Position numbers and translations under genes: made by a program
Virus record (IMG/VR): IMGVR_UViG_3300036770_003326
Span: 25,530 to 89,529 of that record
Strand: one strand, 5' to 3'
Source of the DNA: a virus
Length of the DNA stretch: 64,000 nt
In this document: piece after piece, positions 6,493 to 52,813 of the stretch
How positions within the stretch are numbered: the stretch's first letter is position 1
Layout of the letters: each line of letters starts with the position of its first letter
Notes under the pieces: model-generated
What the model was told of the DNA's origin: nothing
What the model saw: only the letters and a program-made list of their open reading frames with translations
Database searches by the model: none

Positions 6493-6524
6493 TTTATTTT
6501 AATTTAAAGTTAATATTTAATAAT

Positions 6525-22432: not shown

Positions 22433-22462
22433 CTAATTATCTAACCTTTAAATCAGAATAAA

Positions 22463-22729
22463 ATGGAACAGAAACAGACAGCAGTAGAATGGTTGGTCCA
22501 ACAACTAAGAAATGGTAAGGAATTTAATGATGAATTAATCCAACAAGCCAAAGCAATGGAGAAAGAAGAAATAATGTATAGTGAGGAAGAAGTTTTAGAA
22601 ATACTACAAAAATGGTCAATGTATCAAGTTGACATAGAGTTGAATAAATTAAATATAAAAGAACTAAATGATGTGTTGAAAAAAACATTGTCATATAAAG
22701 AATGGTTTGGTCAAATCAAAAAGAAGTAA
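22463..22729 (+). CDS. TAVEWL-family small protein (chimeric C-terminus)
   Basis: QTAVEWL..QAKAMEKEE, then MYSEEEV...WFGQIKKK. Confidence 0.7.
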   Translation: MEQKQTAVEWLVQQLRNGKEFNDELIQQAKAMEKEEIMYSEEEVLEILQKWSMYQVDIELNKLNIKELNDVLKKTLSYKEWFGQIKKK

Positions 22730-22730
22730 T

Positions 22731-22793
22731 ATGGGAAAAGGATTAGACGTAGAAAAGTTTATGAAAGAAAAAGAAACCTTTAAATCAGAATAA
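22731..22793 (+). CDS. 20-aa micro-ORF ending TFKSE
   Basis: MGKGLDVEKFMKEKETFKSE*. Confidence 0.4.
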   Translation: MGKGLDVEKFMKEKETFKSE

Positions 22794-22794
22794 A

Positions 22795-23019
22795 ATGAAA
22801 ACAGCAGTAGAATGGTTGGTTGAAGAAATAAATAAACTAACTGGATTAACGATTCAAATGGATGAGCCAATAATTGAACAAGCTAAAGAAATGGAAAAAG
22901 AGCAGATAAAAAGTGCATTCACACAAGGTGATTTATTTGCAGAAGATTATTTTAACCCTGAAAAATCTAACATCGATTGTTCAGAAAATTACTACAACAA
23001 AACCTTTAAATCAGAATAA
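22795..23019 (+). CDS. TAVEWL-family small protein
   Basis: MKTAVEWL..QAKEMEKEQI..YYNKTFKSE. Confidence 0.75.
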   Translation: MKTAVEWLVEEINKLTGLTIQMDEPIIEQAKEMEKEQIKSAFTQGDLFAEDYFNPEKSNIDCSENYYNKTFKSE

Positions 23020-23107
23020 CGGTTTGCGGCTTTGCAATAGCCGCCAAAGAAGAATTTAATTATTAACCGAGAATTGTCAGGCGGCTATTGCAAAACCGCT
23101 GTTAGCC
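23014..23107 (+). mobile_element. attC-like site 1
   Basis: GAATAAC ... 20-bp arms (19/20) at 23026-45 and 23080-99 ... GTTAGCC. Confidence 0.6.
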
Positions 23108-23134
23108 GCTGGCCTTTCTCACAACTTTAAAACA

Positions 23135-23365
23135 ATGACAGCAAAAGAACAAGCAAGTAGTTTAGTTGAGTATTTTTGGACAGATGTTGAAGAGTTTAAA
23201 CAATACGAAACTATTAAAATGACAAAAGAAATGGCTAAAGATTGTGCCATAAAAGTAGCTGAAGAAGCTAAAATAGAAATAGGAAATTTTGATAGAACTG
23301 ATGGATTTGTCAAAACTCGTGAAGATTTTTGGGATGCTGTCATTGTCGAAATACGGTCTATGTAG
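23135..23365 (+). CDS. MTAKE-family small protein inside cassette 1
   Basis: Paralog of 25584..25793 (AKDCAIKVAEE / AKQCALVAVNE; FW..V..EI). Confidence 0.7.
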   Translation: MTAKEQASSLVEYFWTDVEEFKQYETIKMTKEMAKDCAIKVAEEAKIEIGNFDRTDGFVKTREDFWDAVIVEIRSM

Positions 23366-23371
23366 GCTTGC

Positions 23372-23494
23372 GGCTAACGTTCCGAGTATTTGCGTAGTGC
23401 CTATACTGAACTATATTGTAAAATACAAAACTTAAAAATATGCAGAAAAGATTATTAGAATTACGAAAGGCATTACGCAAATACTGTGTTATGT
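23372..23494 (+). mobile_element. attC-like site 2
   Basis: GGCTAAC ... 18-bp arms (17/18) at 23385-402 and 23468-85 ... GTTATGT. Confidence 0.65.
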
Positions 23495-23512
23495 GCCGTT
23501 TTTATTCAGATT

Positions 23513-23854
23513 ATGACAACGAAAGAGAAGATAATAAATCAAAGCATTGAGCAAGTTGAAAAGCAACTCAAAGAAATCAATTTGATACTTGAAGCTAATC
23601 CTTTAAGCGAGATATGTAAAATTAGACAAGAAGCACAAAAATTGCTCGATGAAAACAAAACTGTTGAGCAAAGAACGAGTGATGATTTTATTGCTAAAAT
23701 AGAAGCATTGTCTAAACGTGAAAAAGAGCAATTTGCATTAGCTGAAAAAGGCAAGGATAGTATAAAATTGATTGACGAAAAAGTCAAATTAGAGTTTGAG
23801 TTGTCAGACTTGCGAAATGAACTGTATCATATTGAACGTAGGCGCGTGTCTTAA
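23513..23854 (+). CDS. Coiled-coil protein inside cassette 2
   Basis: Start moved to ATG 23513 (MTTKEK) because the track start lies inside the attC-like site. Confidence 0.65.
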   Translation: MTTKEKIINQSIEQVEKQLKEINLILEANPLSEICKIRQEAQKLLDENKTVEQRTSDDFIAKIEALSKREKEQFALAEKGKDSIKLIDEKVKLEFELSDLRNELYHIERRRVS

Positions 23855-23860
23855 AATGGC

Positions 23861-23911
23861 ACATAACACCAAAGCAGGTGAAGTTTTAATTTCACTTGCT
23901 GACTGTTATCC
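23861..23911 (+). mobile_element. attC-like site 3 (short)
   Basis: ACATAAC ... agcaggtgaagtt / aatttcacttgct ... GTTATCC. Confidence 0.55.
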
Positions 23912-23955
23912 GCAGTTTTAATTGCGAAAGTTATTAACCTTTAAATCAGAATAAA

Positions 23956-24177
23956 ATGAAACAGACAGCCGTAGAATGGTTAGTTGAAAAATTTTCAACT
24001 CAAGGAACATTACATAGTTCAGATATATCACAAGCCAAAGCAATGGAGAAGGAGCAGATAATGGATGCAAGAGAAGATGGTCATTTATCTACATATGCAG
24101 AATATGGTTCAACTCCTAAATGTTACTTAGACGGAGGACATGAACAATACTACAACGAAACATTTAAATCAGAATAA
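23956..24177 (+). CDS. TAVEWL-family small protein
   Basis: MKQTAVEWL..QAKAMEKEQI..EQYYNETFKSE. Confidence 0.75.
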   Translation: MKQTAVEWLVEKFSTQGTLHSSDISQAKAMEKEQIMDAREDGHLSTYAEYGSTPKCYLDGGHEQYYNETFKSE

Positions 24178-24178
24178 G

Positions 24179-24376
24179 ATGGAACTATTTAAAAGTAAAT
24201 GGGGTCAATGGACAGACCTATCAACTACGGGGTATATGGGGTATAAATATTTACTTCAAGCAAGAAGGCATAAAGACGGAAGAATACAATACAGAGTAGA
24301 AAAAAGTAAGGATTGCTATACTTGCAACATTCCAACACTTGAACAATTAGAAAAAGTAACCTTTAAATCAGAATAA
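24179..24376 (+). CDS. Array hypothetical protein ending TFKSE
   Basis: Start placed at the repeat ATG 24179. Confidence 0.65.
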   Translation: MELFKSKWGQWTDLSTTGYMGYKYLLQARRHKDGRIQYRVEKSKDCYTCNIPTLEQLEKVTFKSE

Positions 24377-24377
24377 G

Positions 24378-24563
24378 ATGAAAACAATAAATGACTTTAT
24401 TAAAGAACTTCAAATGATTAGTGAAGAAAAAAGAAAATTACCATTGGTTGTTCAATGTCCAAATGGGGAAATAACATCACCAACAATTAAGATGATGTGG
24501 GATGAACCATTAATGATGTTTGAAAAAGAACCTGATAAAATGATTATTAGTTGGAGAGATTAA
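24378..24563 (+). CDS. Array hypothetical protein
   Basis: Runs from a repeat ATG to a stop overlapping the next repeat. Confidence 0.65.
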   Translation: MKTINDFIKELQMISEEKRKLPLVVQCPNGEITSPTIKMMWDEPLMMFEKEPDKMIISWRD

Positions 24564-24581
24564 CCTTTAAATCAGAATAGA

Positions 24582-24980
24582 ATGATAATACAAACAAGAA
24601 GGACTTATGATTTTATTGAAATAAAAGTTGATGAAATTAAAACTACAATTTTTAAAAGTGACATTAAGGAAATAAATGACACAATTGAAAATTTATTACA
24701 AGTAGTTGATGAATTAAAAACACTAAAAGAAAGACAAAAAAACAGAACTATGAAACAAACAGCAGTAGAATGGTTGGTTAACGAACTTAAAAACAATCAC
24801 GGTATAGATTTAAAATTATACAATGAGTTTGACAAAGCCAAAGAAATGGAGAAAAAGCAGAGAAAAAAAGACTTTGTTAATGGCTATAAATCAAGAGCCA
24901 AAGAAAGCAATTTAATTTTTGATGAAACCTCTGAAATGTATGCAATTAAATTATTTAACGAAACCTTTAAATCAGAATAG
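24582..24980 (+). CDS. Fusion of an unrelated ORF with a TAVEWL-family unit
   Basis: Internal MKQTAVEWL at ATG 24750. Confidence 0.65.
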   Translation: MIIQTRRTYDFIEIKVDEIKTTIFKSDIKEINDTIENLLQVVDELKTLKERQKNRTMKQTAVEWLVNELKNNHGIDLKLYNEFDKAKEMEKKQRKKDFVNGYKSRAKESNLIFDETSEMYAIKLFNETFKSE

Positions 24981-24981
24981 A

Positions 24982-25368
24982 ATGAAAGCAAATGAATTAA
25001 GAATAGGAAATTATGTTTATGATACTTTAGGTAAAGTAAATACCTATATTGTAAAAGAACCACATAATCAAGTTAAACCAATCCCGCTAACAGAAGAATG
25101 GTTGTTGAAGTTTGGATTTAAAAAATACCCTGACATTAGAGATACATTTCAACAAGTATATTATGATTCCTATCAACTTGAAATTGATAGATTTACTATT
25201 ATTTCATTTTCTATCCAACAAAACAATAAAAATTTGATTAAGTGTAATTATGATAGAGGTTATAGGTCAGAAGATAATAAAAAAAATTATTACATCAAAT
25301 ATCTTCATCAACTTCAAAACCTATACTTTGCACTTACAGGAGAAGAATTAACCTTTAAATCAGAATAG
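24982..25368 (+). CDS. YopX-like phage protein ending TFKSE
   Basis: MKANELRIGN...PIPLTEEWLLKFGF...HQLQNLYFALTGEEL; start at repeat ATG 24982. Confidence 0.65.
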   Translation: MKANELRIGNYVYDTLGKVNTYIVKEPHNQVKPIPLTEEWLLKFGFKKYPDIRDTFQQVYYDSYQLEIDRFTIISFSIQQNNKNLIKCNYDRGYRSEDNKKNYYIKYLHQLQNLYFALTGEELTFKSE

Positions 25369-25369
25369 A

Positions 25370-25582
25370 ATGAAAACAATAACAAAATCAGTAATTAAGT
25401 TGTCGGATATTCCACAGCATTTACAACAAAATGTAGCATTACAAGGACATAAAATACATACTTATGCAGAGTTTCACATTGATAATTCAGAACAAGATGA
25501 TTTAACATTGTGGCTATTAAATAAACATCCTACATTAAAAAGGAAAATAAGTTTTTTAATTCATATTGATAAATCAGAATAG
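25370..25582 (+). CDS. Array hypothetical protein ending KSE
   Basis: Bounded by junction repeats. Confidence 0.65.
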   Translation: MKTITKSVIKLSDIPQHLQQNVALQGHKIHTYAEFHIDNSEQDDLTLWLLNKHPTLKRKISFLIHIDKSE

Positions 25583-25583
25583 A

Positions 25584-25793
25584 ATGACAGCAAAAGAAAA
25601 AGCAAATAGATTGTGCATTGATTTTTTAATGAACATTGATACAGATGATTGTGATTTTGGAATGAATAAAGAAATGGCAAAACAATGTGCATTGGTTGCA
25701 GTGAATGAAATACTTGAAAGTTTTATAATAACTATCCCTAAACATCAAACTGAGTTTTGGGAGCAAGTTAAACAAGAAATAATTAACCTTTAA
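25584..25793 (+). CDS. MTAKE-family small protein
   Basis: Start at repeat ATG 25584; paralog of 23135..23365. Confidence 0.7.
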   Translation: MTAKEKANRLCIDFLMNIDTDDCDFGMNKEMAKQCALVAVNEILESFIITIPKHQTEFWEQVKQEIINL

Positions 25794-25804
25794 ATTAGAA
25801 TAAG

Positions 25805-26047
25805 ATGACAGCAGTAGAAGAATTAATACATTTTATTAAAAATGATAGAATGCAAAGTACATACACAAAAGAACAAATATTGGAACTACTTAAATTTAAG
25901 TTAGAAAAAGAGAAAGAGCAGATGATTGAATTTGCTAAGTACACAGAATTTATTGATACAGATAAAAGTGATATGAACAAAGTAATAGACTTTTACTTAA
26001 CACTTGACGGAGAAGAATTTGTTGAAGAAACCTTTAAATCAGAATAA
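25805..26047 (+). CDS. Divergent TAVE-family protein ending TFKSE
   Basis: MTAVEEL...EKEKEQM...ETFKSE. Confidence 0.7.
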   Translation: MTAVEELIHFIKNDRMQSTYTKEQILELLKFKLEKEKEQMIEFAKYTEFIDTDKSDMNKVIDFYLTLDGEEFVEETFKSE

Positions 26048-26048
26048 G

Positions 26049-26250
26049 ATGGAAAACAGCAGTAGAATGGTTTCAAGAACAGTTTAATAAGTATTATGCT
26101 TTTTCAAAGGAAGAAATGCAAACATTTGATTGGATGTTTAACAAAGCCAAAGAAATGGAGAAAGAGCAGATAATAGATGCTTGTAAACAATGTTCTTATA
26201 GTTATGAAGAAGCAGAACAATACTACAACGAAACCTTTAAATCAGAATAA
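26049..26250 (+). pseudogene. Frameshifted TAVEWL-family unit
   Basis: ATG-G-AAAACAGCAGTAGAATGG has one extra G relative to the 22795 copy; the shifted frame reads KTAVEWF..KAKEMEKEQI..EQYYNETFKSE*. Confidence 0.7.
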
Positions 26251-26251
26251 G

Positions 26252-26329
26252 ATGATGATTGCAATTGTATTTTTCTTAATAGGAATAGTTGTTGGACTTA
26301 TAATGGGTTACAACATAATGAAAAAATAA
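26252..26329 (+). CDS. 25-aa single-TM micro-protein
   Basis: MMIAIVFFLIGIVVGLIMGYNIMKK*, exactly between two repeats. Confidence 0.55.
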   Translation: MMIAIVFFLIGIVVGLIMGYNIMKK

Positions 26330-26401
26330 TTAAATCAGAATAAGATGAAAGTAACATATAAATTTTCTTATTATACTTTAAACGCTTTAAACTAAAATAA
26401 A

Positions 26402-26596
26402 ATGAAACAATTTCTTTTATATACACTCTCCTGGATAAGCCAAAACTTGGCTGTACCATTTTGGGTAGTAGGACACGTTCATTTGAGTATTAATGTATAT
26501 GAAGATATTTACGAACTGCTAGCGTCATTTGGCATGAACGCAATTGTCCTAGCAGGATTTATTTACGATTATTTAAAACAAATAAAAAAATTATAG
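26402..26596 (+). CDS. Small membrane protein
   Basis: Hydrophobic 64-aa ORF. Confidence 0.55.
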   Translation: MKQFLLYTLSWISQNLAVPFWVVGHVHLSINVYEDIYELLASFGMNAIVLAGFIYDYLKQIKKL

Positions 26597-29777: not shown

Positions 29778-30619
29778 AAATGAATGGGACCTTACTCAGT
29801 GATGAGTATTGCAAACTCCGTGAATTGCTGGAAGGCTAAGGGCACGTCCGCCTATGCTAATCAGCAGCCAAGACTACTAGGAATAGTAGTAAGGTTCAGA
29901 GACTAGGTTATGGAGACCAGAACGGTCGGTAAAAACCCACGAGTGCGGAGCATCTTTAATTAATTATCCAAATAAACTATTAGGATAATTAAAACAATTT
30001 AAGTATTTTTGCTAAAATATTAAAACTATGATAGCAAAAAAATGTAGTAAATGCCAAAAAGTACTTCCTATAGAAGAATTTTATAAATATGCCAAAAGTA
30101 AAGACGGGTTAACACATCATTGTCAGCATTGTTATAGAAAATATAGGAAAGAAAAACAAGAACATTATCGTCAATATATGGAAAATCGTAGAAAAACTGA
30201 TAATGAACGTGTCAAACAAATGAAAAATAAGTCTTGGCAAAATTTAGATCCTAGGAAAAAAATGTTACAACAAGTTAAAAATCGTTGTAATAGAAAAAAC
30301 TTAGAATTTAATTTAGAATTAGAAGATATTATTTTACCGCCAGTATGTCCATTATTAGAAATACCTTTTGTTGTAGGTACTAGAGATAATTATGAACACA
30401 CATATAGTTTAGATAGGATAGACTCTTCTAAAGGATATATTAAAGGTAATGTTTGGGTAATTACAAAGTTGGCAAATTCTATGAAAAACTCTGCTTCTAA
30501 AGAAGAGTTAGTAGTTTTTGCTAAAAACATATTTAAATATTTTAAAGATGATGATATAGTCCGAACTGTATAGAAATATACAGAAATATGAGATAAAGAG
30601 CTCATATAGTAACAAATTG
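29778..30619 (+). mobile_element. Group I self-splicing intron in polA
   Basis: Exon ends in U and intron ends in G; splicing restores NYP|IQG; core elements AATTGCTGGAA, AATCAGCAGC, GTTCAGAGACTA, GATATAGTCC; TGAAT pairs with 3' exon ATTCA (P10) and GGGA pairs with 5' exon TCCT (P1). Confidence 0.93.
30028..30573 (+). CDS. Intron-encoded homing endonuclease (Zn-finger plus HNH-like)
   Basis: CSKC...CQHC; CPLL; SLDRIDSSKGYIKGNVWVIT..AN.MKN. Confidence 0.85.
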   Translation: MIAKKCSKCQKVLPIEEFYKYAKSKDGLTHHCQHCYRKYRKEKQEHYRQYMENRRKTDNERVKQMKNKSWQNLDPRKKMLQQVKNRCNRKNLEFNLELEDIILPPVCPLLEIPFVVGTRDNYEHTYSLDRIDSSKGYIKGNVWVITKLANSMKNSASKEELVVFAKNIFKYFKDDDIVRTV

Positions 30620-34874: not shown

Positions 34875-35549
34875 ATGGCACAATTAGTATTCCTGGTTGG
34901 AAAATCGGGTATGGGTAAATCTACCTCATTGAGAAACCTAAACCCTGATGAAACTGTAATTATCAACACTGATCAAAAAGCGTTGCCTTTCAAACAGTTT
35001 AATCTAAAATATAATGAGGAAAGAAAGAATTACAAAAAGACTTCTGATGCTGTAGAAGTCTATAAAGTACTGAACAAAGTAAACAGCATGGAAAATGTTA
35101 AAACTGTTGTAATAGATACTTGGTCAAGAATTATGACTGACGCTATTATGTCACAAAGTTTTCGTGCAGAAAAAGGCTTTGATAAATGGTCTAAGATGGC
35201 CGCTAATCAATATGATTTAATTAATTATATTAACGACGGTATGAGAGATGATATAATAGTATATCTAATGGCTCATCCTGAAACTCATTTTGATGAAAAC
35301 GGCTTTTCTACTGAACGTATTGGCGTACAAGGTAAAATGCTTGAGCGTTTTGTGCCAGAAAGTTTTAGTACCATAGTACTTTATGCAGAAATTATCAAAC
35401 AGCCTGGACAAGCTAACAAACATGTATTTAGAACTGTATCTTCAGGTTCTGATACTTGTAAAACGCCTTTAGAAATGTTTGAAACAGACAGTGTAGAAAA
35501 TGATTTATTACTTGTAAATCAAAAAATTAGAGAATATTATTCAATTTAA
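34875..35549 (+). CDS. AAA-type P-loop ATPase (Sak4/AAA_24-like)
   Basis: GKSGMGKSTS, VVIDT, C-terminal KTP..MF. Confidence 0.8.
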   Translation: MAQLVFLVGKSGMGKSTSLRNLNPDETVIINTDQKALPFKQFNLKYNEERKNYKKTSDAVEVYKVLNKVNSMENVKTVVIDTWSRIMTDAIMSQSFRAEKGFDKWSKMAANQYDLINYINDGMRDDIIVYLMAHPETHFDENGFSTERIGVQGKMLERFVPESFSTIVLYAEIIKQPGQANKHVFRTVSSGSDTCKTPLEMFETDSVENDLLLVNQKIREYYSI

Positions 35550-36847: not shown

Positions 36848-37849
36848 ATGGAAAAGATAGACTTAAATTCATTAATGTTTAATGCTCTTATTACAAGAGA
36901 AGATATTCTTAAACATGTAACACAAGAAGAAATATATGGGTTTTATATGGGTGAAAATATTAAGAATTTAGGTGTGTATCATAGTCCGTTACGGGAAGAT
37001 AATATACCTTCTTTTGCTTTGTATTTTCATAAAATACATCATAATACTCTTATGTTCAAAGATTTTGCAACTAATGATTGCGGTGATTTTGTTGTATTAG
37101 TTATGAAGTTATTTAATCTAAATTATTCTAATGCATTATTTAAGATAGCATATGATTTTGGGCTATCTAGTTTAAATATTTCTAGCAATAAGGTTAATAT
37201 AAATTATACTAAGTTAGAACACAAAGAACGTGTAAATCTAGCTGTAAAGCTTAGACAATGGGAAAAACATGATAAAGATTATTGGACTAGCTTTAATATT
37301 AGAAAGAGCACTCTACATAAATTTAGTGTATTTCCAATTAGTCATGTGTTTTATAATTCTAATGCTGTCAAAACTCATAAATATGCTTATGTATATGTAG
37401 AAGAAAAAGATGGAATAGTAACTTATAAAATATACCAACCTTTTGAAAACAAGCAGAAAAAGTGGATTAATAACGCTAATTATACTGTACACCAGGGTTA
37501 TAAACAACTGCCAAATACAGGAGAATTATTGATAATAACTAAATCTTTAAAAGATGTTATGAGTATTCACGATACTTTAAACATTGCTGCTATAGGTTTA
37601 CAATCTGAATCTGTGATGATGAAGGAAAGTGTAATGGAAGAATATAAATCTAGATTTAAAAGAGTAGTATGTCTATTTGACAATGATGAAGCAGGTAGAA
37701 AGTTATCTGTAGGTTTTACAGAAAGGTACGATGTTCCACACATATTTGTACCTGAGTTACCTAAAGTAACAGACTTTAGTGACTTAGTAAAAGTAGTAGG
37801 ACAGCAAGAAGCTGTTGAAATTTTAAAAAAATTAATTAAAGAAATATGA
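36848..37849 (+). CDS. DnaG-type primase
   Basis: SPLREDNIPSF, KDFA, TOPRIM motifs IITKSLKDVM and FDNDEAG, TDFSD. Confidence 0.85.
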   Translation: MEKIDLNSLMFNALITREDILKHVTQEEIYGFYMGENIKNLGVYHSPLREDNIPSFALYFHKIHHNTLMFKDFATNDCGDFVVLVMKLFNLNYSNALFKIAYDFGLSSLNISSNKVNINYTKLEHKERVNLAVKLRQWEKHDKDYWTSFNIRKSTLHKFSVFPISHVFYNSNAVKTHKYAYVYVEEKDGIVTYKIYQPFENKQKKWINNANYTVHQGYKQLPNTGELLIITKSLKDVMSIHDTLNIAAIGLQSESVMMKESVMEEYKSRFKRVVCLFDNDEAGRKLSVGFTERYDVPHIFVPELPKVTDFSDLVKVVGQQEAVEILKKLIKEI

Positions 37850-40239
37850 AATTAGAAACAAAAAAACAAATTGATTTTACTTCTAATGCTTCTTTTGAGG
37901 GTTACGATGCTACTATTAGCAAACATGACATGCATAAACTGTGGGATATGCTACAAAATCCTTACAAAAATCCTATCGGTGCAGTTGTAAGAGAATATGT
38001 TAGTAATAGTTTTGACAGTCATGCAGAAGCTAAATTTATTAAAGAGCACTCGATAGAAGAAATTAAAAACGAATATTCTATTTATCAAACTGCTCCAATG
38101 GAAGAGTTAGTAGCTTTAAAACAAGCTGTAGAAATCTTTAATGATGATGCTGTAATTGTTACTATTGACAAAGACGATACAGGTTGGTTTTGGGCAACTG
38201 AAGATTTTGGTGTAGGTTTATCTCCTAGTAGAATTAAAGATGTATTTGTAAATTATTTGAAATCTACTAAGGAAACAAGTAATACGATGATAGGTGCGTT
38301 TGGTATGGGCTCAAAAAGCGGTTTAAGTTATGCTGATGTAGTTTTTATTCGTACTAGATATAATAGCATAGAGTATAGTTATATGCTAAGAAAAGGTGAG
38401 AATGGTCCTAGACTAGATATTATTGGAGAAGCAGCAACAACAGAAAGAAACGGCACGGAGATTAAAGTTTATATAGAAATAGAAGATGTAGCAAAGTTCA
38501 GAAGCAGTTGTAAAGAACAGTTAGCTTATTTTGACAATGTTTACTTTTCTTATTACTGTGAGATTCCTAATAACTTTCAGATTATTAAAGGCAATACGTG
38601 GATAGCTACTACTGGAGAAACTCCTCAAAACGACTTACATATTTGTTTAGGTAAAGTATCTTATCCAATAGATTGGAAGATACTTGAAATACCTAGAATA
38701 GATTTTCCTGTAGCACTTCAATTTGAAATAGGTGAACTAGATGTTATTCAAACAAGAGAAGATGTTAAGTATACTCCTAGAACTAAAGAAGCTATTTACA
38801 AAAAGCTAATAGAATTTGAAACAGAGTTAAGAAAAAGATGGGCAGAAAGTTCTAAAGAATGTAGTACAATTGAAGAGTTTTATGCAAAAAGAAATGAAGT
38901 TCCTACTTTATACTTTGCTCAAAATCAAATTGAGTTAAACTTAAAACAGAATGGATTATTTTGTATTGAAGAGAATGGCTATTATTATAAACCTTTTCAA
39001 GATGCAGGCTTAGCAGTATTTATGTTGCCTAAAGATTACACCAGTTTATTCTTTGACTATTATACTAGCGGTCAGTTTTCTGCTAGATTTCAAAAGTATA
39101 ATGCTGATGCAGGTGCGTTGTTAACAAAAGCAAATAGGAATCCTTATCAACTAATAATGAGAATTTCTCAAGAACACGAACCTCGTAAAAGTAAGTTTAT
39201 TAAACACACTTTTAAGAAAGATGTTTTGTTTTTTATTAGAAAAAAAACTAGGTTATACTTAAAGTATTATGTAAGCACGTTAAAACTTAAAACTGTATCA
39301 AAAGACAAGTGGAGAGGTATTATTACTGCTTATCAAAAAATAATACAGAAAGAAGTTATTGATAAGACTACTAGTTATGATAAAGTAGTACCTACTAAAG
39401 AATGGTTAGAATCTCAAAAAAAGACAAAAGCAAAAAGAGATACTACAGAAATTCAAGTAAAAACTTCTACGTTTTATTTTAATACTTCAGATTCTAAAAA
39501 TACAGAAAAAAGAAAAGTATCTGATTTTTTAGGTAATAATAGAACCTTATTTTTCCTTAACTCTAATGATGCTACGCCTGAAGTTGATAGAAATATGAGG
39601 CTTGTATATCTTACTTATAAAACTTTTACAAAAACTCCAGATAAGTTTATGCAGTATTGTGAAGTAGCTCCTACTAATTTAAAAAAGTTAAAAAATGTAA
39701 AAAATCAAGTTACAATGGAAAGTTTCTTATCAGAAGAAAATAAAGTTTTTCGCAGAATGGTTAGTATGGTTAAACTATACAAAAATCATGCAGACGCATT
39801 TAGTAAATTAAAAAGAATGCTAGCAGATGTTAATAAAATAAAGTTGCTTAAAGTATTAAGTCCTACTGTTTCTTCAGACTTAACAATATTAACAAATACT
39901 TTTTTAAATTTTACTAAACTAATAGAAGCAGAAAATAGACTATATGGGAGTGAAAAGTTTTTACAAGACACTTGTTATAAACTAGCTGTACAAAATAATA
40001 GTTTTGATAAAAAGTTAGAAGAAGATTTCTTTAAAATATTAAAATATTCTGAGCAGTTAGATATTATAGATTTTATTGACACTTCTACATACAGGTTTAA
40101 CAAAAACATAGGAAGTATTGTAGAATTTATTGCAGAGGCTATTTATTTACAAAACAAGTTTAAAACTAAACATAAGTTTCCTTTAAACATTCATTATAAA
40201 ATCTATTTCAATAGTAAATTTAAACACTATAAATGCTAA
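37846..40239 (+). CDS. rIIA-like protein with N-terminal GHKL ATPase
   Basis: REYVSNSFDSH, DFGVGLS, STK, IGAFGMGSKS, NGT; upstream of an rIIB-like gene. Confidence 0.8.
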   Translation: MKLETKKQIDFTSNASFEGYDATISKHDMHKLWDMLQNPYKNPIGAVVREYVSNSFDSHAEAKFIKEHSIEEIKNEYSIYQTAPMEELVALKQAVEIFNDDAVIVTIDKDDTGWFWATEDFGVGLSPSRIKDVFVNYLKSTKETSNTMIGAFGMGSKSGLSYADVVFIRTRYNSIEYSYMLRKGENGPRLDIIGEAATTERNGTEIKVYIEIEDVAKFRSSCKEQLAYFDNVYFSYYCEIPNNFQIIKGNTWIATTGETPQNDLHICLGKVSYPIDWKILEIPRIDFPVALQFEIGELDVIQTREDVKYTPRTKEAIYKKLIEFETELRKRWAESSKECSTIEEFYAKRNEVPTLYFAQNQIELNLKQNGLFCIEENGYYYKPFQDAGLAVFMLPKDYTSLFFDYYTSGQFSARFQKYNADAGALLTKANRNPYQLIMRISQEHEPRKSKFIKHTFKKDVLFFIRKKTRLYLKYYVSTLKLKTVSKDKWRGIITAYQKIIQKEVIDKTTSYDKVVPTKEWLESQKKTKAKRDTTEIQVKTSTFYFNTSDSKNTEKRKVSDFLGNNRTLFFLNSNDATPEVDRNMRLVYLTYKTFTKTPDKFMQYCEVAPTNLKKLKNVKNQVTMESFLSEENKVFRRMVSMVKLYKNHADAFSKLKRMLADVNKIKLLKVLSPTVSSDLTILTNTFLNFTKLIEAENRLYGSEKFLQDTCYKLAVQNNSFDKKLEEDFFKILKYSEQLDIIDFIDTSTYRFNKNIGSIVEFIAEAIYLQNKFKTKHKFPLNIHYKIYFNSKFKHYKC

Positions 40240-40243
40240 AAAT

Positions 40244-40483
40244 ATGAATGTAGAACATTATGAAGAAGTAGGCGACACTATTCTTAGACCTATATGGACA
40301 AGATTGCGAGAAGAAAAGGTAGTAAAGATAACAGAAAAAGGTATTTATGTAGATGCTTGGCAATATGTGTATAATCACTCATTAAAAAAAGTAGAAACAT
40401 TGCCTCACGTAAAAAGAATATGTGCAGAGAGTTATTTACCAAAAGAGAACTTTATTAATGTAACAAAACTAAACAATAATTAA
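40244..40483 (+). CDS. Hypothetical protein
   Basis: 79-aa ORF between rIIA and rIIB. Confidence 0.5.
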   Translation: MNVEHYEEVGDTILRPIWTRLREEKVVKITEKGIYVDAWQYVYNHSLKKVETLPHVKRICAESYLPKENFINVTKLNNN

Positions 40484-40493
40484 AACAAAAAGT

Positions 40494-41822
40494 ATGATTA
40501 AAGCAATGAGAGTAGGTAACACTATAGTTTGTACTATAGGCTCTAAAATGTACCAAAAAGTTTGTAACAGCAATGAAGACATTCTTAATCTGTATGAGAA
40601 AGCGTTAAACACTAATGAATCAGATTATGACGAAGTAAAAAGTTTAATAGCTTGTTTTGAAGTTTCTAAAACTAAAGACGAAGAAAGATTAGAAGAGCAA
40701 GAAAAAGATGCTCTTAATCAAAAAAGTCTTATTGACTGGATGGATAGTATTAGGAATTTAGGAGATGAGCATTTTGAAGTAATAGGCATTAAGTTGTATA
40801 TGAAAGGCATCAATATTACTGTGCCTGAGTTCTTAGCATTAGAGTTTGCAAAGCGTAGAGATAACCAAGAAGATTTATCAGCTATGATGAATTTTTGGAG
40901 ACTATGTGCGTTAAACCCTGATCCAAAATGTAGAGAAGATTTGTATAAATTCTTAATTAACAACGATTTGACTTTAACTCCTAGCGGTTACTTTGTAGCT
41001 TATAGAAATGTTAATGTTAAAAACGAAGGTTTACGAGAAAGAAACGAATTTGTTGCAGAACAATGGTTAAAAATTAAAACTCAGAAAAGAGGTCCTAAAA
41101 ACTTTGTAGTAGTATGGAATAACGAAGACAAAGAATTTGAGTTAATGCACGAAGATAAATGGGAAGTTCTTAAAGACAAAACTTACGAAATAGACAACGG
41201 TTACGAAGACGAAGATGGTGAATGGATAGAAGAATGGGAAGAAGAAAATTTGTATAAGTATCAAGGCAACTTACAAGAGTTGTACGTAGAGTTTGTAAAC
41301 TTAGAAGCAAGTGAACAAACTGTTTACACAGATGGCTATACAGGTCGTATGGAAATTATTTTAGGACAGCCTGTTAAGATTGACCGTAAACAATGTGATG
41401 CAAACCCAGATAGAACTTGTTCTAGAGGTTTACACGCAGCCAATAGTAGTTGGTTAACATCAGGGTATTTTGGCTCGGTAGGCTTAGCAGTATTAATTAA
41501 TCCAATGCATGTAATTGCCGTTCCTTATACAGACGGAGGCAAACTAAGATGTTGTGAGTATTTACCAATTGCTACTATTGAGTACGATAGTGAAGGCAAA
41601 GTAATTCCTATTGATACTAATACTTTTGAGTTAGAGTATGCAGAGTATACACAAGAAGAGTTGGAAGACTTAATTGAAAATACTCCACTAGAATCTTTAA
41701 AAGAACACGAAATTATTCCTAAAGAAATTAGTTTGTATGCTTTTAGAAAAACTATTCAAGATTTAAGAAATACTTTATGTCAATTGACAGAAGTAGTATC
41801 TAACAGAGTTAAAAACGTATAA
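40494..41822 (+). CDS. rIIB-like protein
   Basis: NFW....NP....LYKFL, G.FVAYR, CD.NP..TCSRGLH, NP.HVIAVP, KLRCCEY. Confidence 0.8.
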   Translation: MIKAMRVGNTIVCTIGSKMYQKVCNSNEDILNLYEKALNTNESDYDEVKSLIACFEVSKTKDEERLEEQEKDALNQKSLIDWMDSIRNLGDEHFEVIGIKLYMKGINITVPEFLALEFAKRRDNQEDLSAMMNFWRLCALNPDPKCREDLYKFLINNDLTLTPSGYFVAYRNVNVKNEGLRERNEFVAEQWLKIKTQKRGPKNFVVVWNNEDKEFELMHEDKWEVLKDKTYEIDNGYEDEDGEWIEEWEEENLYKYQGNLQELYVEFVNLEASEQTVYTDGYTGRMEIILGQPVKIDRKQCDANPDRTCSRGLHAANSSWLTSGYFGSVGLAVLINPMHVIAVPYTDGGKLRCCEYLPIATIEYDSEGKVIPIDTNTFELEYAEYTQEELEDLIENTPLESLKEHEIIPKEISLYAFRKTIQDLRNTLCQLTEVVSNRVKNV

Positions 41823-41824
41823 CA

Positions 41825-42319
41825 ATGGTGAGTGAGATAAAACTAGAGTTTCCCGAATTTATCACGCATATACCACAAAGTAAAAACGTATGGGTTAAAA
41901 TAGGTTATAATAAAATTCATGCTTCTGTGCATTATACAACTAGAGCGGCTCTTGTGGCCGCTATGCACGGTTATATTGAAAAAAATATTCCTGAAAATCT
42001 TAGTATTCAAGCACCAATTGAAACTAAGCTAACTGTATATGCGCCTATAAACTTTGGTAGTATGAAAATGGTAAAAGATAAAACTACTGGTAAGAGAAGA
42101 ACGAGTTGGACTCCTGCAGCTCCTGGGTATAAACCTAATTGGGATATAGGAAATTTAGCATTAATATGGATTAAAGCTTTAGACGACGTATTAATTAAAA
42201 AAGGAATACTTCCAGATGATACTGTTGAATTTCTAAGAAGAACTACTTATGAGTTTATTCCTGTAAGTAATTTTAAAGATAGAAAATTAGTCTACAAATT
42301 AAAAAGTATAAAAAGATGA
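41825..42319 (+). CDS. RusA-like Holliday junction resolvase
   Basis: WDIGN...KALDDVL..GILPDD. Confidence 0.65.
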   Translation: MVSEIKLEFPEFITHIPQSKNVWVKIGYNKIHASVHYTTRAALVAAMHGYIEKNIPENLSIQAPIETKLTVYAPINFGSMKMVKDKTTGKRRTSWTPAAPGYKPNWDIGNLALIWIKALDDVLIKKGILPDDTVEFLRRTTYEFIPVSNFKDRKLVYKLKSIKR

Positions 42320-43353
42320 GTAATTATAAAGACATACAAGCGCTCAATCAGAGTATCTTAAAGAAAATATTATACAGTCCTGCAGAATTTAAAAAAGCTC
42401 AAGAACGACAAAACAACGAAGAATCTAGCCAAGATCATTTTGTATTTGGTACAATGGTAGATATAATGTTAACAGGTACTCGAGCAGAATTTGATGAAAA
42501 ATTTATTAAAATATCCGAAGATTCTTATCCTAGTGAAACTATTGAAAAAATAGTAAGAGGTGTTTTTGATGAAATTCTAACAGAGCATCAAGAAGATATT
42601 AATTTTTTTCCTTTTAGTGCTTATACTGATAAGATTTTACAGCATTGCAAATATCAAAATTATTATAATAATTATAAAGATGAGACTAGAGTAAGCAAGA
42701 TACTTACTACTGGCACAGATTATTTTGAGTTATTACAAAATTCTGTAGGTAAAACTATAGTTACTGATATTGAGTATGCTAAAGCTGTAAATTGTGTAAT
42801 GGCCTTAAAATCTGATGATTTTACTAAAAAATATTCTGATAAAAATTATCCAAAACATTCTCCAGATGATTTAGAGTATTTAGATAAAGTAGTCATTATG
42901 TTTGAATATGAAGGCTTGCAATTTAAAGGTGAGTTAGATAGAGTTATGTTAGACCATGATAGAAAAGTAATTACTCCAATAGACTTTAAAACTACTAGTA
43001 AAAGTATTATTAGTTTTAAACATGAGTTTTGGAAATATCGTTATGATTTTCAAGCAGCAGTATATCGTTACGGGCTTACAAAACAAGATTTTATAGTGGA
43101 ACTAATGAAAAAAGGTTATGTAATGGATAATTTTCTATATATTGTAGTAGAAAAAGAATTGACTAACCCGCCAATGTGTTTTGAGGTAACTAAAGATATT
43201 ATTCATATAGGTCTTGCAGGTGGCAAAATAGAAAATACTTTTTATGAAGGATTTACACAAGCAGTAGAGAGATATATTTATGCTGAAAATAACAACAAAT
43301 GGCAGTATCCAAAAGAATATTATGTAAATAACGGCAGAATGAGTTTATTATGA
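42316..43353 (+). CDS. PD-(D/E)XK exonuclease (RecE/ExoVIII-like)
   Basis: FGT.VD, KGELD, IDFKTT, YDFQAAVY. Confidence 0.8.
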   Translation: MSNYKDIQALNQSILKKILYSPAEFKKAQERQNNEESSQDHFVFGTMVDIMLTGTRAEFDEKFIKISEDSYPSETIEKIVRGVFDEILTEHQEDINFFPFSAYTDKILQHCKYQNYYNNYKDETRVSKILTTGTDYFELLQNSVGKTIVTDIEYAKAVNCVMALKSDDFTKKYSDKNYPKHSPDDLEYLDKVVIMFEYEGLQFKGELDRVMLDHDRKVITPIDFKTTSKSIISFKHEFWKYRYDFQAAVYRYGLTKQDFIVELMKKGYVMDNFLYIVVEKELTNPPMCFEVTKDIIHIGLAGGKIENTFYEGFTQAVERYIYAENNNKWQYPKEYYVNNGRMSLL

Positions 43354-43991: not shown

Positions 43992-44471
43992 ATGGATTTT
44001 GATAATTTTTATAAATCCGATAAACTAAGATTTTATAAATTTTTTTTGAAAAGAGTTTTTGATAATGTAATAGCTGAAGATTTAACTCAAGATTTTTTTA
44101 TAAAAGTCTATTTAAATCTAGATAAATTTGATGATAATAAAGCTTTATGGGATGCCTGGTTATTTGTTATTGCTAGAAATATTTTAATAGATTACTATAG
44201 AAAAAATAAGTATTTATATAATTCTGTAAAAATAGATATAACTAGTATAGACTATCCTGTAGAGAATCATTTTAATGAAATGCTCGATGTATATAATAAA
44301 GAAATTAATAAAATAAGTAAGAAAAAAATAGATTGTTTTATTATGTTGTACGAAGGCTATAGTATAAAAGAAATTCAAAAAGCTTTTAATATATCAGAAG
44401 GAACTGTAAAAAGTAGAATATTTAAGTCTAGAGAAATTTTAAAAGAAAAACTAAAAGAATTTATAATATGA
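43992..44471 (+). CDS. ECF-type sigma-70 factor
   Basis: AEDLTQDFFIKV, WLFVIARNILIDYYRK, EGYSIKEI...ISEGTVKSRIFKSR. Confidence 0.85.
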   Translation: MDFDNFYKSDKLRFYKFFLKRVFDNVIAEDLTQDFFIKVYLNLDKFDDNKALWDAWLFVIARNILIDYYRKNKYLYNSVKIDITSIDYPVENHFNEMLDVYNKEINKISKKKIDCFIMLYEGYSIKEIQKAFNISEGTVKSRIFKSREILKEKLKEFII

Positions 44472-48503: not shown

Positions 48504-51500
48504 TTACTCGTTATAATTTTCTGAAAAATCGTAATTTATTTCACTTGCAGTCTTTTTTTCAGATTCACTTCCATAACCTCCTAAAATATTACTAGGCAAT
48601 AACCAATCAAAAATCCACCTAGTTGCTGTCAAAGATTCTTTTTCAGGATCTTCAGGCTTCATAGTTTCGTAGTAAGTAGAATTTACTGTAGTTTTTACGT
48701 ATTGATTTTTTAGTTCTGGATAACGAAGCTCATAAATATTTTTAAATCCTGGTATTTTTCTCATTCTCCATCTTTGAGCATGAGTATATCCTTCATACAT
48801 ACCTGATTCATATACATCACCATTAAATATTTCCTTTATATCAGTAAGTTCTTGTAAAAATCTAGCACCTACTACAGGCTCTTTAATCATTTGAATTAAT
48901 TCTGCTGGGCTAAATCCTGCTCCTTGTTCTAATAATAAACGATTTAATTGATATGCAGTATATTGTGTTGTAAAATCATCATCGTCATCATCGTCTGCTC
49001 TAATATTTGCAAGAGCTGCTAGAATAGCTATAATATTTAAATACACTAAATCTAATGCTGTACGTAATACACCTTTTTGCTGTACAGGATCTAAAGAGTT
49101 ATATACTGCTAACGCAGAACGAGTATATTCTTTGCCTCTTAATTGCAAAAATACTTTAGATAAATAATCTGCAGTAGCATTAAAGTTACCCCACTCTTCT
49201 TCTTCTGTTACATAATTAACTCCTCTTTTTTTCAGCCTTGTGTCTACTAGATTTAAAAACCATCCACGGTGAATTAATAGAAAATCTCCCATCCAACTTC
49301 TAGATAATTTACCTTTATCTGTAGGTGCCATAGTACCATCAACATAATGAGTAACATAATCTATTTTATGTTTAGCGGCTGCTAGAACTCCAGGAGTCAC
49401 ATCTTTACTAAATTCTGGTTTTATTTTTAAATTTCCGTCTACAACTTCATGGGCGTTATATAAACTTTTTTCTCTCAAACTTTCCCATTTTTCTTGCATA
49501 GCTTTTTTATGGGCTTTATTATTTTGAGTATTATTTTCTTTGGCAGTTTTTTCTAAAAATTTAGATTTAGTAAGGAACTGGCCGTTATAAAATCTAATAT
49601 TATCTAGTACTGCTAAAGTAATTCTGCCTTTTAATGCAAAATCTGCTTGAGTATATCCTGTATACCATATATCAGAACTTGTTAAAGATCTTGTAGCTCT
49701 ATCACCAGTAGTTTGAAAAAGTATTTTTTGTAAATCAATAATGCCATTTTCTTGCATTATTAAATGCATCTTATTAGTTTTTTTGGCTTTACCTGCTTGT
49801 CCTAAAATCTCTCCCATATTTTTCATAAACTCAATACGGGACCAATTTTTACTTTCAGTAGTAGTATATTGGCCTAAAGTATCTTCTATAATACTATCAC
49901 CTGAACCTTTTAAATATCCTGATACAATAGTAGCATAGTTACCCGCTAAGTTTAGCTTTCTTACTGCTCCTGCAAGATTTCTAGATATTTTATCAAAAGA
50001 AAGTTCTTTGCCTTGCATTTTCTCAGGTAAAATAGCTCCTAAAAACTGTCCCATAAGACTATCTTTATTTCCTATAGTTACTCCAAGAGATGATTTTCTT
50101 TCTATATTATATACATAAGAATCCACTAAAGTTTCTAATGCTTGATATTCATTAGATTCTAGTCTTGATTTTCTTTTTTTACTGTCTAAATATTCTCCTG
50201 CAGCTAAAGTTCTTTGAATATTTCCTAACGGGCCCGCTATCTTATTCATTTCTTTAAAATTATCTGCCATTTCCGCAAAAATTGTAAAGGTTTTAGCTAC
50301 ATCTAAAGAAATTTGAGACATGTCTGTAGCAGTTTTTGTAAAATAAATAGGTACCATTTTATTATTCAAACTACTTACTTCTCCATATTCTGTATCATCT
50401 GGATCAAGAAATAACATATCGTGACCGACATCAGATACTCTACCAAAAAAACTTTTATCTCTATTTACTAGTTTTTCTATGTTGTTTTTTCTGATGTTTG
50501 GTAAAGAATAAATTAATCTTTCTGTTCGATATTGTACAGGAAGTTTATTAACTGCTTCTTTTTTAGTCTCTACTAGTTTATTATAATACTGAGCAAATGT
50601 AGGATTGCTCATAAGTTTTTCAAACTGTGGGTTTATATATTTATCTGCAGGAACAGAAATAGTATTACCGTCTTCATCAGTAGTTTGTTTAGTATTCTCT
50701 GCTCTAAATTTTTTCCAAGCATTATAGTAAACCTTTCTATCTTCTTCGTTTAATAATTCTACGCTTATTAGCGCATAACTTTCATATCCTAAATCTTTTG
50801 CCATTTGAGCTTTAGCAGCTTCCATAGCTTGGTAGTATTTATAATAATTATGCTTGCGAATTAAAAATCCAGTATTATTATTTTTATCATCTTTCTCAAA
50901 TAAATCATCTATTTTATGGTTAGATTTTAAAAATATTTCTTGAGAAGTTAAAATATTATTAGCTGTTTGAACAGAGAATTTTAATACTTTATCTTTGGCA
51001 TCTACTATTATTTTATGTGCAGCTTTTAATAATTTAGAACTAGCGTTTTTATAGTTACCTACCCAAAGCCTCCAACCACTTGTAACATCTTCTTGAATAG
51101 ATTCAAATTCTTTTTCAGCATTAAAATCAGGATCTATAACTTCACCATATTCGTTTCTATTAGTATCTTCTAAAAATTTAATTCCTATTACTTTACTAAT
51201 GGCATTATTAATTGCACGAGCTTCGCTAAGTAAACTTAGACTAGAATTTATTATTTCATAGTATTCTTTTTTATTTTCTGTTTCTAGTCCAGAAATTAGA
51301 ATATCTTCTTTAAACTTAGCAAATAAATCTTCGTACATTTTTACGAAGTCATTAATCATATTAGCATTATGAGCATCGTAGTTTTTATCTTTTTGTACTT
51401 TATTTAAATACTTAATAATACTTTCTATTTCTCCATTTGCTAGATTAGTAAAAGAAGCTATGCCTAGATCAAATTGGCCATTTTTTACCGTGTTTCTAAT

Positions 51501-52802: not shown

Positions 52803-52813
52803 AATTATAAACT

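Follow-up and report, generated by a model that had tools for sequence, protein, structure and literature searches.

How a phage comes to carry several small genes that are nearly identical in some short segments and unrelated in the segments between is the question raised by an array at 22.4-26.4 kb of a 64,000-nucleotide (nt) window of the virus record IMGVR_UViG_3300036770_003326. The window covers bases 25530-89529 of the 89.5-kb record, whose completeness is rated at 70%, and all positions below are those of the window. Six units of the array encode members of one protein family in which constant blocks alternate with a first (V1) and a second (V2) variable segment. The best overall explanation, which we hold with good but not full confidence, is that these are small genes linked by a short DNA joint, and that the constant blocks let phages exchange V1, V2, and whole genes.

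Six family units with constant blocks

A profile search over the entire record found exactly six family units and no further ones. All are on the plus strand, and their constant blocks are block 1 (TAVEW), block 2 (AKEMEKEQ), and block 3 (ETFKSE, or YYNETFKSE). Unit 1 (22463-22729, 88 residues) runs from block 1 through V1 to block 2 and then continues into another C-terminal module, which lacks ETFKSE. Unit 2 (22795-23019) has 74 residues and unit 3 (23956-24177) has 73. Unit 4 lies within a 132-residue open reading frame (ORF; 24582-24980) in which a 56-residue N-terminal extension is fused in frame, with block 1 from 24750. Unit 5 (25805-26047, 80 residues) is a diverged member (TAVEE..., KLEKEKEQ). 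The start of unit 6 is broken: one extra G puts the ATG at 26049 out of frame, and the family frame (26050-26250) has no in-frame start ahead of the methionine at 26116. The extra G recurs in a contig of run X2 that covers 25349-26173 with zero differences; this contig comes from the very study whose data best cover the stretch, and does not count as independent. All but one of the units are acidic, with a pI of 4.4-5.1.

The blocks recur as DNA far above chance. Block 1 DNA (ACAGCAGTAGAATGG, at most 2 mismatches) has 5 matches versus 0.13 expected, the 24-nt block 2 (at most 3 mismatches) has 4 versus 0.00, and block 3 DNA (TTTAAATCAGAATAA, at most 2 mismatches) has 14 versus 2.27, the largest shuffle giving 5. 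Thirteen of the TTTAAATCAGAATAA matches lie on the plus strand at 22447-26343, and one with 2 mismatches lies on the minus strand at 6494-6508. The variable segments are essentially unalignable within the window. None of the 15 V1 pairs exceeds z = 2.8 against shuffles, and 13 of the 15 V2 pairs stay at z ≤ 2.4; the remaining two V2 scores, 3.8 and 4.2, were attributed by eye to semi-conserved ends. The initial annotation, made from the sequence alone, had described six units sharing three near-identical DNA blocks around unrelated segments, with a change of C-terminal module after block 2 in unit 1. All six units were recovered at these places, and each part of the description holds for blocks 1 and 2, but block 3 proved not to be specific to the family.

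Reassortment of V1 and V2

Incongruent V1/V2 pairings among homologues had been proposed as the test for exchange at the blocks. The test set drew on both protein searches and on the ORFs of fetched loci and comprised 233 distinct units in which all three blocks are present; V1 and V2 were clustered at 60% identity by single linkage. The 139 V1 clusters and 132 V2 clusters form 224 different pairings. More than one V2 partner was found for 32 of the 139 V1 clusters, and more than one V1 partner for 29 of the 132 V2 clusters; at the extremes, 14 V2 types are joined to a single V1 type and 15 V1 types to a single V2 type. All four V1/V2 combinations are present for 4 pairs of V1 types. Segments of the window itself are re-partnered elsewhere: the V1 of unit 2 occurs with the V2 of unit 4 (P0011) and with the V2 of unit 3 (P0015), and the V1 of unit 6 occurs with the V2 of unit 5 (P0035).

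DNA comparisons locate the breakpoints. Unit 2 and its homologue in locus L126 have unrelated V1 segments followed by about 96% identity from block 2 to the 23-nt joint that encodes block 3. The V2 of unit 2 alone is about 96% identical to L126, and a gene in L104 is 99% identical to unit 2 from the ATG through the joint. Unit 4 and the L185 gene are about 96% identical from the ATG to block 2, have unrelated V2 segments, and are identical again at the joint. Unit 6 is 97% identical to the L057 gene from block 2 to the end. The shared DNA segments are 96-99% identical and end sharply at the blocks. An all-versus-all DNA comparison of 68 distinct family genes (at least 93% identity over at least 60 nt) gave 23 matches that include both variable segments (1), V1 only (6), V2 only (6), or neither (10). 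In 12 of 12 cases a partial match breaks off on its inner side within block 2, which makes up 11% of the length; on the outer side, 10 of 12 break off in the joint, block 1, or block 3. A contig of run X4, which belongs to another study, agrees with 23935-24058 and with 24159-24585 apart from 2 differences in each. It keeps block 1, V1, block 2, and two downstream genes, and has about 103 other letters where the V2 of unit 3 stands. These data support the proposal that the internal blocks are crossover points; alignable variable segments with congruent V1 and V2 histories, the opposite outcome, were not seen. The initial annotation had also proposed a combinatorial library. The V1/V2 pairings are combinatorial, but they are not generated inside this phage: the library is a common pool spread over a very large family in many uncultured phages.

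Ordinary tandem duplication and divergence without exchange would fit the presence of six paralogues on one strand within 4 kb. It is contradicted by V segments that cannot be aligned in the window and nevertheless have near-identical copies elsewhere with other partners, and by the lack of a family gene in close relatives. Targeted hypermutation by a diversity-generating retroelement was also considered. The 89.5-kb record, 70% complete, has no match to the reverse transcriptase model RVT_1 (a control matched 3 of 14 genomes), and no template-like repeat of any V segment was found. The V segments also vary in length, which counts against both ideas, and we give the two together almost no credence.

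Reassortment could also be an artefact of assembly, if contigs were chimeric across short repeats. The homologues are all from metagenome assemblies, and repeats do break assemblies, as in the X2 and X3 contigs of this phage, which stop at blocks. The assemblers here visibly break and do not join, and block 2, at 24 nt, should be shorter than the reads and the usual final k-mers. The same mosaic proteins recur in several sources and on several contigs (for example, P0056 on 8, P0091 on 16, and P0006 on 11), and segments in common have sharp ends and 96-99% identity over 100-220 nt. An artefact of this kind is very improbable.

Family size and predicted fold

A profile of the six units was compared with 1.84 billion proteins and matched 5,249 cluster representatives (50% identity) at E ≤ 0.001, of which 378 reached E ≤ 1e-10. 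A second collection contains at least 7,929 proteins at E ≤ 0.001, this number having been reached among 8,000 scored candidates. Single-block matches in 402-405-residue ORFs of three loci (L231, L233, and L237) were excluded from the family. AlphaFold2 was run on unit 3 with an alignment of 122 homologues, and predicted three helices at residues 5-16, 21-50, and 62-69 with a mean predicted local distance difference test (pLDDT) score of 86. Blocks 1, 2, and 3 lie on predicted helices 1, 2, and 3, respectively; V1 corresponds to the end of helix 1 and the following turn, and V2 to the end of helix 2 and the loop preceding helix 3. The model agrees with the earlier expectation of helical proteins of about 70 residues.

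Searches for named relatives returned little. Among 122 family members, at most 7 match any one Pfam family, none at E ≤ 0.001 in those families, and at most 3 match any one PHROGs family; Pfam and PHROGs searches with 14 array proteins gave nothing consistent. Against 50,697 GenBank phage records, tblastn with unit 3 gave no match at E ≤ 0.01, and blastn with 22.0-27.0 kb gave only three matches of 48-62 nt. The best PDB sequence match had an E value of 0.092, Foldseek found nothing in the PDB at E ≤ 0.001, and a wide VIA fold search gave generic helical matches (best Z 5.8). Matches in BFVD were uncharacterized proteins of uncultured phages only, those in the ESM Atlas were unnamed viral clusters only, and a text search for the block motifs found no paper in the library searched. 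The low-complexity pattern of block 2 occurs in genome contigs at no fewer than 2 loci in metagenome-assembled genomes, which is uninformative on the host. The family is thus very large and unnamed, and consists of proteins of about 70 residues with a predicted three-helix fold.

Rare codons in the blocks

Codon use was compared in 93 family genes whose loci had been retrieved through protein similarity, a set that is therefore unbiased by DNA pattern. In block 2, alanine is encoded by GCC in 76 of 92 cases (83%) versus 7% elsewhere in the same genes, glutamate by GAG in 74 of 91 and 69 of 80 cases at two positions (81-86%) versus 15%, and glutamine by CAG in 70 of 88 (80%) versus 14%. In block 3, tyrosine is encoded by TAC in 22 of 23 and 20 of 23 cases (87-96%) versus 33% elsewhere, threonine by ACC in 18 of 22 versus 14%, and serine by TCA in 19 of 20 versus 34%. 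This pattern would reflect either selection on the nucleotide sequence or continual copying of blocks between family members. Recombination is placed in the blocks because both readings imply it.

A different view is that the blocks are conserved only as a folded protein core, that recombination falls there since it is the only shared sequence, and that there is no selection at the DNA level. The blocks do coincide with the three predicted helices, their near-invariant residues are typical of cores and helices, and synonymous block variants exist. Protein constraint alone does not predict frozen rare codons, and block 3 DNA is maintained in three reading frames and in non-coding DNA. We regard this view as possible but doubtful. 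A bolder proposal is that the blocks are nucleotide-level recombination splints, written in rare G/C-ending codons and retained for promoting exchange. Together with the three-frame joint they would form a virome-wide plug-and-play system, in which unrelated lake phages draw V1, V2, and whole-gene cassettes from a shared pool for early host-targeting binders. It is similarly tentative, and we would not expect it to be right in full.

The third block as a gene joint

The DNA of block 3 belongs to a 23-nt joint, (A/T)AACCTTTAAATCAGAATARRATG, and ETFKSE is one of its reading frames. There are 14 copies, all on the plus strand, at 22443-26347, with a degenerate copy at 26385; there are none elsewhere in the 89.5-kb record. 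All copies but one finish in the ATG of the next gene, one base past a stop, and the full TTAACC form has a TAA in all three frames. In the ETFKSE frame the joint closes the unrelated genes at 24179-24376 and 24982-25368, and the gene at 25370-25582 keeps the core only (...IDKSE). Read in other frames, it ends the gene at 24378-24563 at the TAA of TTAACC and the gene at 25584-25793 at the TAA of TTTAAA. Copies are also present in non-coding DNA before units 1 and 3. (YYN)ETFKSE had been listed as a protein block of the family, a description that does not survive its sharing with unrelated genes, its use in other frames, and its non-coding copies. Judged from its sequence, block 3 is best described as a frame-independent stop-restart gene joint and not as a C-terminal protein module.

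The same organization is found in other phages. Of 203 distinct joint copies in fetched loci, 94 follow a family ORF, 87 follow some other gene, and 22 have no ORF upstream; the stops in use lie 4, 14, or 21 nt ahead of the ATG. An exact 18-mer of the joint occurs in at least 129 stretches of viral contigs. Conservation is limited to positions -21 through +5 around the ATG and includes A at -3, -6, -12, and -13, with no Shine-Dalgarno sequence. Baez et al. (2019, PMC6847099) describe A at these four positions as positive initiation determinants in Flavobacterium johnsoniae, whose ribosomes disregard Shine-Dalgarno sequences. Lack of an additional AUG close by is a further trait of such initiation regions. 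In the window, a Shine-Dalgarno-like 4-mer precedes only 1 of 36 long ORFs. By sequence alone, the joint has the anatomy of a Bacteroidia initiation region that works without a Shine-Dalgarno sequence. This anatomy makes a termination-reinitiation site that can be reached from any upstream frame the most likely role of the joint.

A role mainly as a promoter (for a virion RNA polymerase, a phage sigma factor, or the host enzyme) or as an RNA-processing site was weighed against translational restart. Early promoters of the crAss-like virion polymerase are not known, and early transcripts of phage phi14:2 are described as having no detectable common upstream motif (10.1101/2020.03.07.982082). 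This phage has a sigma-factor gene and a 3,435-residue ORF with a DFDID motif, and about 20 nt of the joint are exactly conserved, which is beyond the needs of an A-rich leader. The placement of this conservation does not suit a promoter: it ends at the ATG with none beyond -21, and a transcript would be nearly leaderless. The next start always lies one base past the stop, no matter which of the three stops closes the upstream gene. A lineage-specific polymerase is an unlikely reader, as a homologue of this phage's capsid protein was found in none of 10 other large records with the joint or the family, of which three are rated at least 95% complete (positive control 5 of 5). A sigma-70 scan gave 62 sites versus 48.5 ± 6.3 expected, which is no enrichment, and only two weak 9-of-12 matches (24560-24589 and 24955-24983) touch a joint. 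No -33/-7 boxes of the Bacteroidota type were seen by eye. No inverted repeat was found within the joint, and none of three terminator-like sites in 20.5-28.2 kb is at a joint. We consider the promoter or processing role unlikely and retain translational restart as the preferred reading.

Two-unit fusions are common among the database proteins (P0003, P0006, P0013, P0017, P0021, P0024, P0029, P0048, and P0072). In several (P0003, P0006, and P0072), translation continues across the joint in another frame and gives ...LNQNKM..., which suggests from sequence that a one-base change in the joint merges two genes into one.

Proposed mechanism

In the mechanism that we propose, the small genes of the array would be linked by the 23-nt stop-restart joint, each next ATG lying one base past a stop. 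The three blocks, constant at the nucleotide level, would serve as homology patches at which co-infecting phages swap V1, V2, or whole genes, and V1 and V2 would thereby assort almost independently across the family. Annealing-type homologous recombination at blocks of 15-45 nt is the most likely route for such exchange between co-infecting phages. A Sak4-like single-strand annealing protein (34875-35549, plus strand; phrog_2872, E 1e-64) is a candidate enzyme for exchange at short homologies, and an exonuclease (42316-43353, plus strand; phrog_412) is a possible partner. The tyrosine recombinase model Phage_integrase has no match in the 89.5-kb record, and its control matched 14 of 14 genomes.

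Several points weigh against this account. The 233-unit sample is biased to relatives of the window's units, and single linkage may fuse V2 types that are alike only in their framework ends. The matched gene pairs may be non-independent, their contigs possibly coming from similar samples, and the evidence from metagenome assemblies is at the level of contigs and not of single reads. The blocks form the predicted helical core, and protein constraint alone explains their amino acid conservation. Repeated copying of one block version could freeze rare codons without selection for recombination. The family is mostly independent of the joint: among 97 units in 80 loci fetched by protein, the joint is at the stop of 18 and upstream of 3. 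No RNA run that contains this stretch is listed, and we infer both the restart role and the early timing from the DNA.

The family proteins could be early, non-essential binders of host proteins that serve takeover or counter-defence, with variable surfaces that would choose the target. This guess draws on where the genes lie, on the small size and acidity of the proteins, on the pairing of a conserved scaffold with hypervariable surfaces, and on the many copies and their rapid turnover, and we give it clearly less than an even chance. The initial annotation had likewise put forward anti-defence or host-takeover binders; the family, structure, and fold searches gave no functional lead.

Genome context and relatives of the array

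The genome is that of a crAss-like phage, because it has crAss-type capsid, portal, and terminase genes, a terminase match to phage phi14:2, and a giant protein with a DFDxD motif. The capsid, portal, and terminase genes (PHROG matches: major head, portal, and terminase) are on the minus strand at 1-16 kb, and replication genes are on the plus strand at 28-48 kb. The closest named terminase match is Cellulophaga phage phi14:2 at 35% identity. The 3,435-residue ORF (52814-63121, minus strand) has DFDID at residue 2218, the catalytic motif that is reported for the phi14:2 virion RNA polymerase (10.1101/2020.03.07.982082). This ORF far exceeds the 2,180 residues reported for phi14:2 gp66. It is one of two giant minus-strand ORFs, the other being at 48504-52823 (1,439 residues).

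The array at 22.4-26.4 kb lies directly past a strand switch near 21 kb, at the start of the rightward gene block, and its neighbors are small ORFs without a family assignment. The region is flanked by a conserved 171-residue gene and a DNA polymerase gene and is variable across relatives. It is thus a variable accessory-gene region that heads the rightward, replication-side block.

Five relatives with capsid proteins 84-96% identical to that of this phage have 1, 0, 0, 0, and 0 joints, and none of the five has a family gene; the positive control on the window's own record returned 6. Syntenic loci of relatives (22 in number) have 0-3 joints each and a family ORF in 2. Since close relatives are without the family, the array was recently gained or expanded in this phage. 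The 80 loci fetched by protein have 0 to 4 units each, and the six that this phage has in 4 kb are the highest number observed. Within the same runs, contigs are 10 to 100 times deeper over the blocks and the common V2 types than over unique parts, and many family members therefore coexist in one community.

Small genes in the syntenic loci have looser A-rich leaders. Such a leader, for example ...CTTAAAACAAATAAAATG, precedes most of the small genes in two close relatives (L218 8751-12721 and L225 6936-10372). The joint may be a sharpened form of the ordinary leader of this lineage.

Comparison with known systems

The closest parallel for crossover within a gene is found in the gp38 adhesins of T-even phages, which have hypervariable segments between conserved glycine-rich motifs. 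According to Trojet et al. (2011, PMC3157838), the constant motifs make up the core of the structure, and the variable segments are independent of one another and can readily be swapped. The family here is similar in that a single small protein alternates constant and variable segments that are exchanged between phages. The two are unrelated in sequence and in fold: these are helical proteins of about 70 residues, whereas gp38 is a virion adhesin of about 260 residues. The family blocks have no glycine, the genes lie in an accessory array and not in the tail module, and no adhesin or tail-fibre family is among the 25 most-matched of 87 Pfam families in the scan of 122 members. In this family, unlike gp38, the last constant block doubles as a gene joint, and the exchange pool covers phages that share no capsid homologue.

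For shuffling between genes, the nearest counterpart is the promoter-early stem-loop (PeSL) cassette, which Arbiol et al. (2010, PMC2839356) describe from hyperplastic regions of T4-type phages. PeSLs are short repeats between small non-essential genes of a variable region, at which recombination is described as shuffling, inserting, and deleting genes. Copies of the joint likewise lie between small accessory genes, with exchanges at them. A PeSL, as described there, is a sigma-70-like promoter with a terminator stem-loop; the joint has neither and is instead a three-frame stop, a leader without a Shine-Dalgarno sequence, and an ATG. PeSLs sit between genes, whereas two more crossover blocks lie inside the gene here.

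Relaxed homologous recombination by Sak4/Rad52-like annealases has been presented as a source of phage mosaicism (PMC5928155, PMC5499656). A Sak4-like protein and exchange at short homologies are common to both cases. The patches here are 15-45 nt in defined blocks and not anywhere along diverged genes, and we infer the link to the enzyme. An integron-like array would be marked by a tyrosine recombinase and by attC sites that form hairpins; the record has no Phage_integrase match, and the joint has no inverted repeat. Traits of a diversity-generating retroelement are missing as well (no RVT_1 match, no V-like repeat). The array belongs to neither the gp38 nor the PeSL class (it has no promoter, stem-loop, glycine motif, or homology) and works like both at once. 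It is classed as conserved-linker shuffling in phages.

With more than 5,000 clusters at 50% identity and no Pfam or PHROG model, this is one of the larger unnamed families of small phage proteins. The evidence is unusually clear that phage mosaics actually cross over at short conserved sequences, both within a gene and at its border: the breakpoints are sharp, all four V1/V2 combinations are found for some pairs, and synonymous sites are fixed in rare codons. If the blocks were selected for exchange, evolvability would be built into the coding sequence, and if they act as splints for a shared pool, this would be a natural DNA-shuffling library at the level of the community rather than the genome. 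For Bacteroidota that are blind to Shine-Dalgarno sequences, the joint could be of use as a portable element for initiating and coupling translation, and the family scaffold is a candidate natural binder framework.

Other features of the array

All features of the array are on the plus strand. Joint copy 1 (TAACCTTTAAATCAGAATAAAATG, 22443-22465) is non-coding, follows a hairpin, and gives unit 1 its ATG. A 20-codon mini-ORF at 22731-22793 ends ...EKETFKSE, overlaps copy 2 (22775-22797), and looks from its sequence like a remnant. Copy 3 (23001-23019) closes unit 2 and has no ATG after it. Copy 4 (23936-23958) is non-coding and gives unit 3 its ATG, and copy 5 (24159-24181) spans block 3 of unit 3 together with the stop and the ATG of 24179.

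The joint-free insert at 23020-23935 fits exactly between the stop of one joint (23019) and the following joint (23936). It has ORFs at 23135-23365 (phrog_21441) and 23513-23854 and GC-richer inverted repeats at 23026-23045/23080-23099 (95% complementary), 23385-23402/23468-23485 (94%), and 23486-23502/23853-23869 (94%). The last pair brackets the ORF at 23513-23854. A contig in run X4 joins 23022 to 23854, omitting 831 nt, and therefore a segment within the insert may be an insertion or a mobile piece.

Unrelated genes are placed between the joints. The first (24179-24376, 65 residues) ends VTFKSE with the joint in the ETFKSE frame, and the second (24378-24563, 61 residues) comes after copy 6 (24358-24380) and stops inside copy 7 (24562-24584). 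A 128-residue gene (24982-25368; phrog_10066, E 7e-23) lies between copies 8 (24962-24984) and 9 (25350-25372) and ends LTFKSE. It is followed by a 70-residue gene (25370-25582) that ends IDKSE at copy 10 (25564-25586), where only the core is kept. The next gene (25584-25793, 69 residues; phrog_21441) stops in copy 11 (25785-25807, 1 mismatch). This gene and the ORF at 23135-23365 are a second paralogue pair in the array. Both start MTAKE... and match phrog_21441 (E 2.6e-4 for 23135-23365 and 2.4e-11 for 25584-25793), the former lying in the joint-free insert and the latter between joints.

Copy 12 (26029-26051) supplies the ATG at 26049 that is out of frame with unit 6. Copies 13 (26232-26254) and 14 (26325-26347) flank a 25-codon hydrophobic mini-ORF (26252-26329) with the peptide MMIAIVFFLIGIVVGLIMGYNIMKK. 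A 16-codon ORF at 26345-26395 is likewise framed by joints, and the degenerate fifteenth copy (26385-26409) contains the ATG of 26402. Rfam gave four matches in 20.5-28.0 kb, all far under the gathering scores. Farther along the plus strand the window encodes an endonuclease VII/HNH-like protein (30028-30573), rIIA-like and rIIB-like proteins (37846-41822), and the sigma-factor-like protein (43992-44471; phrog_1740, E 1e-20).

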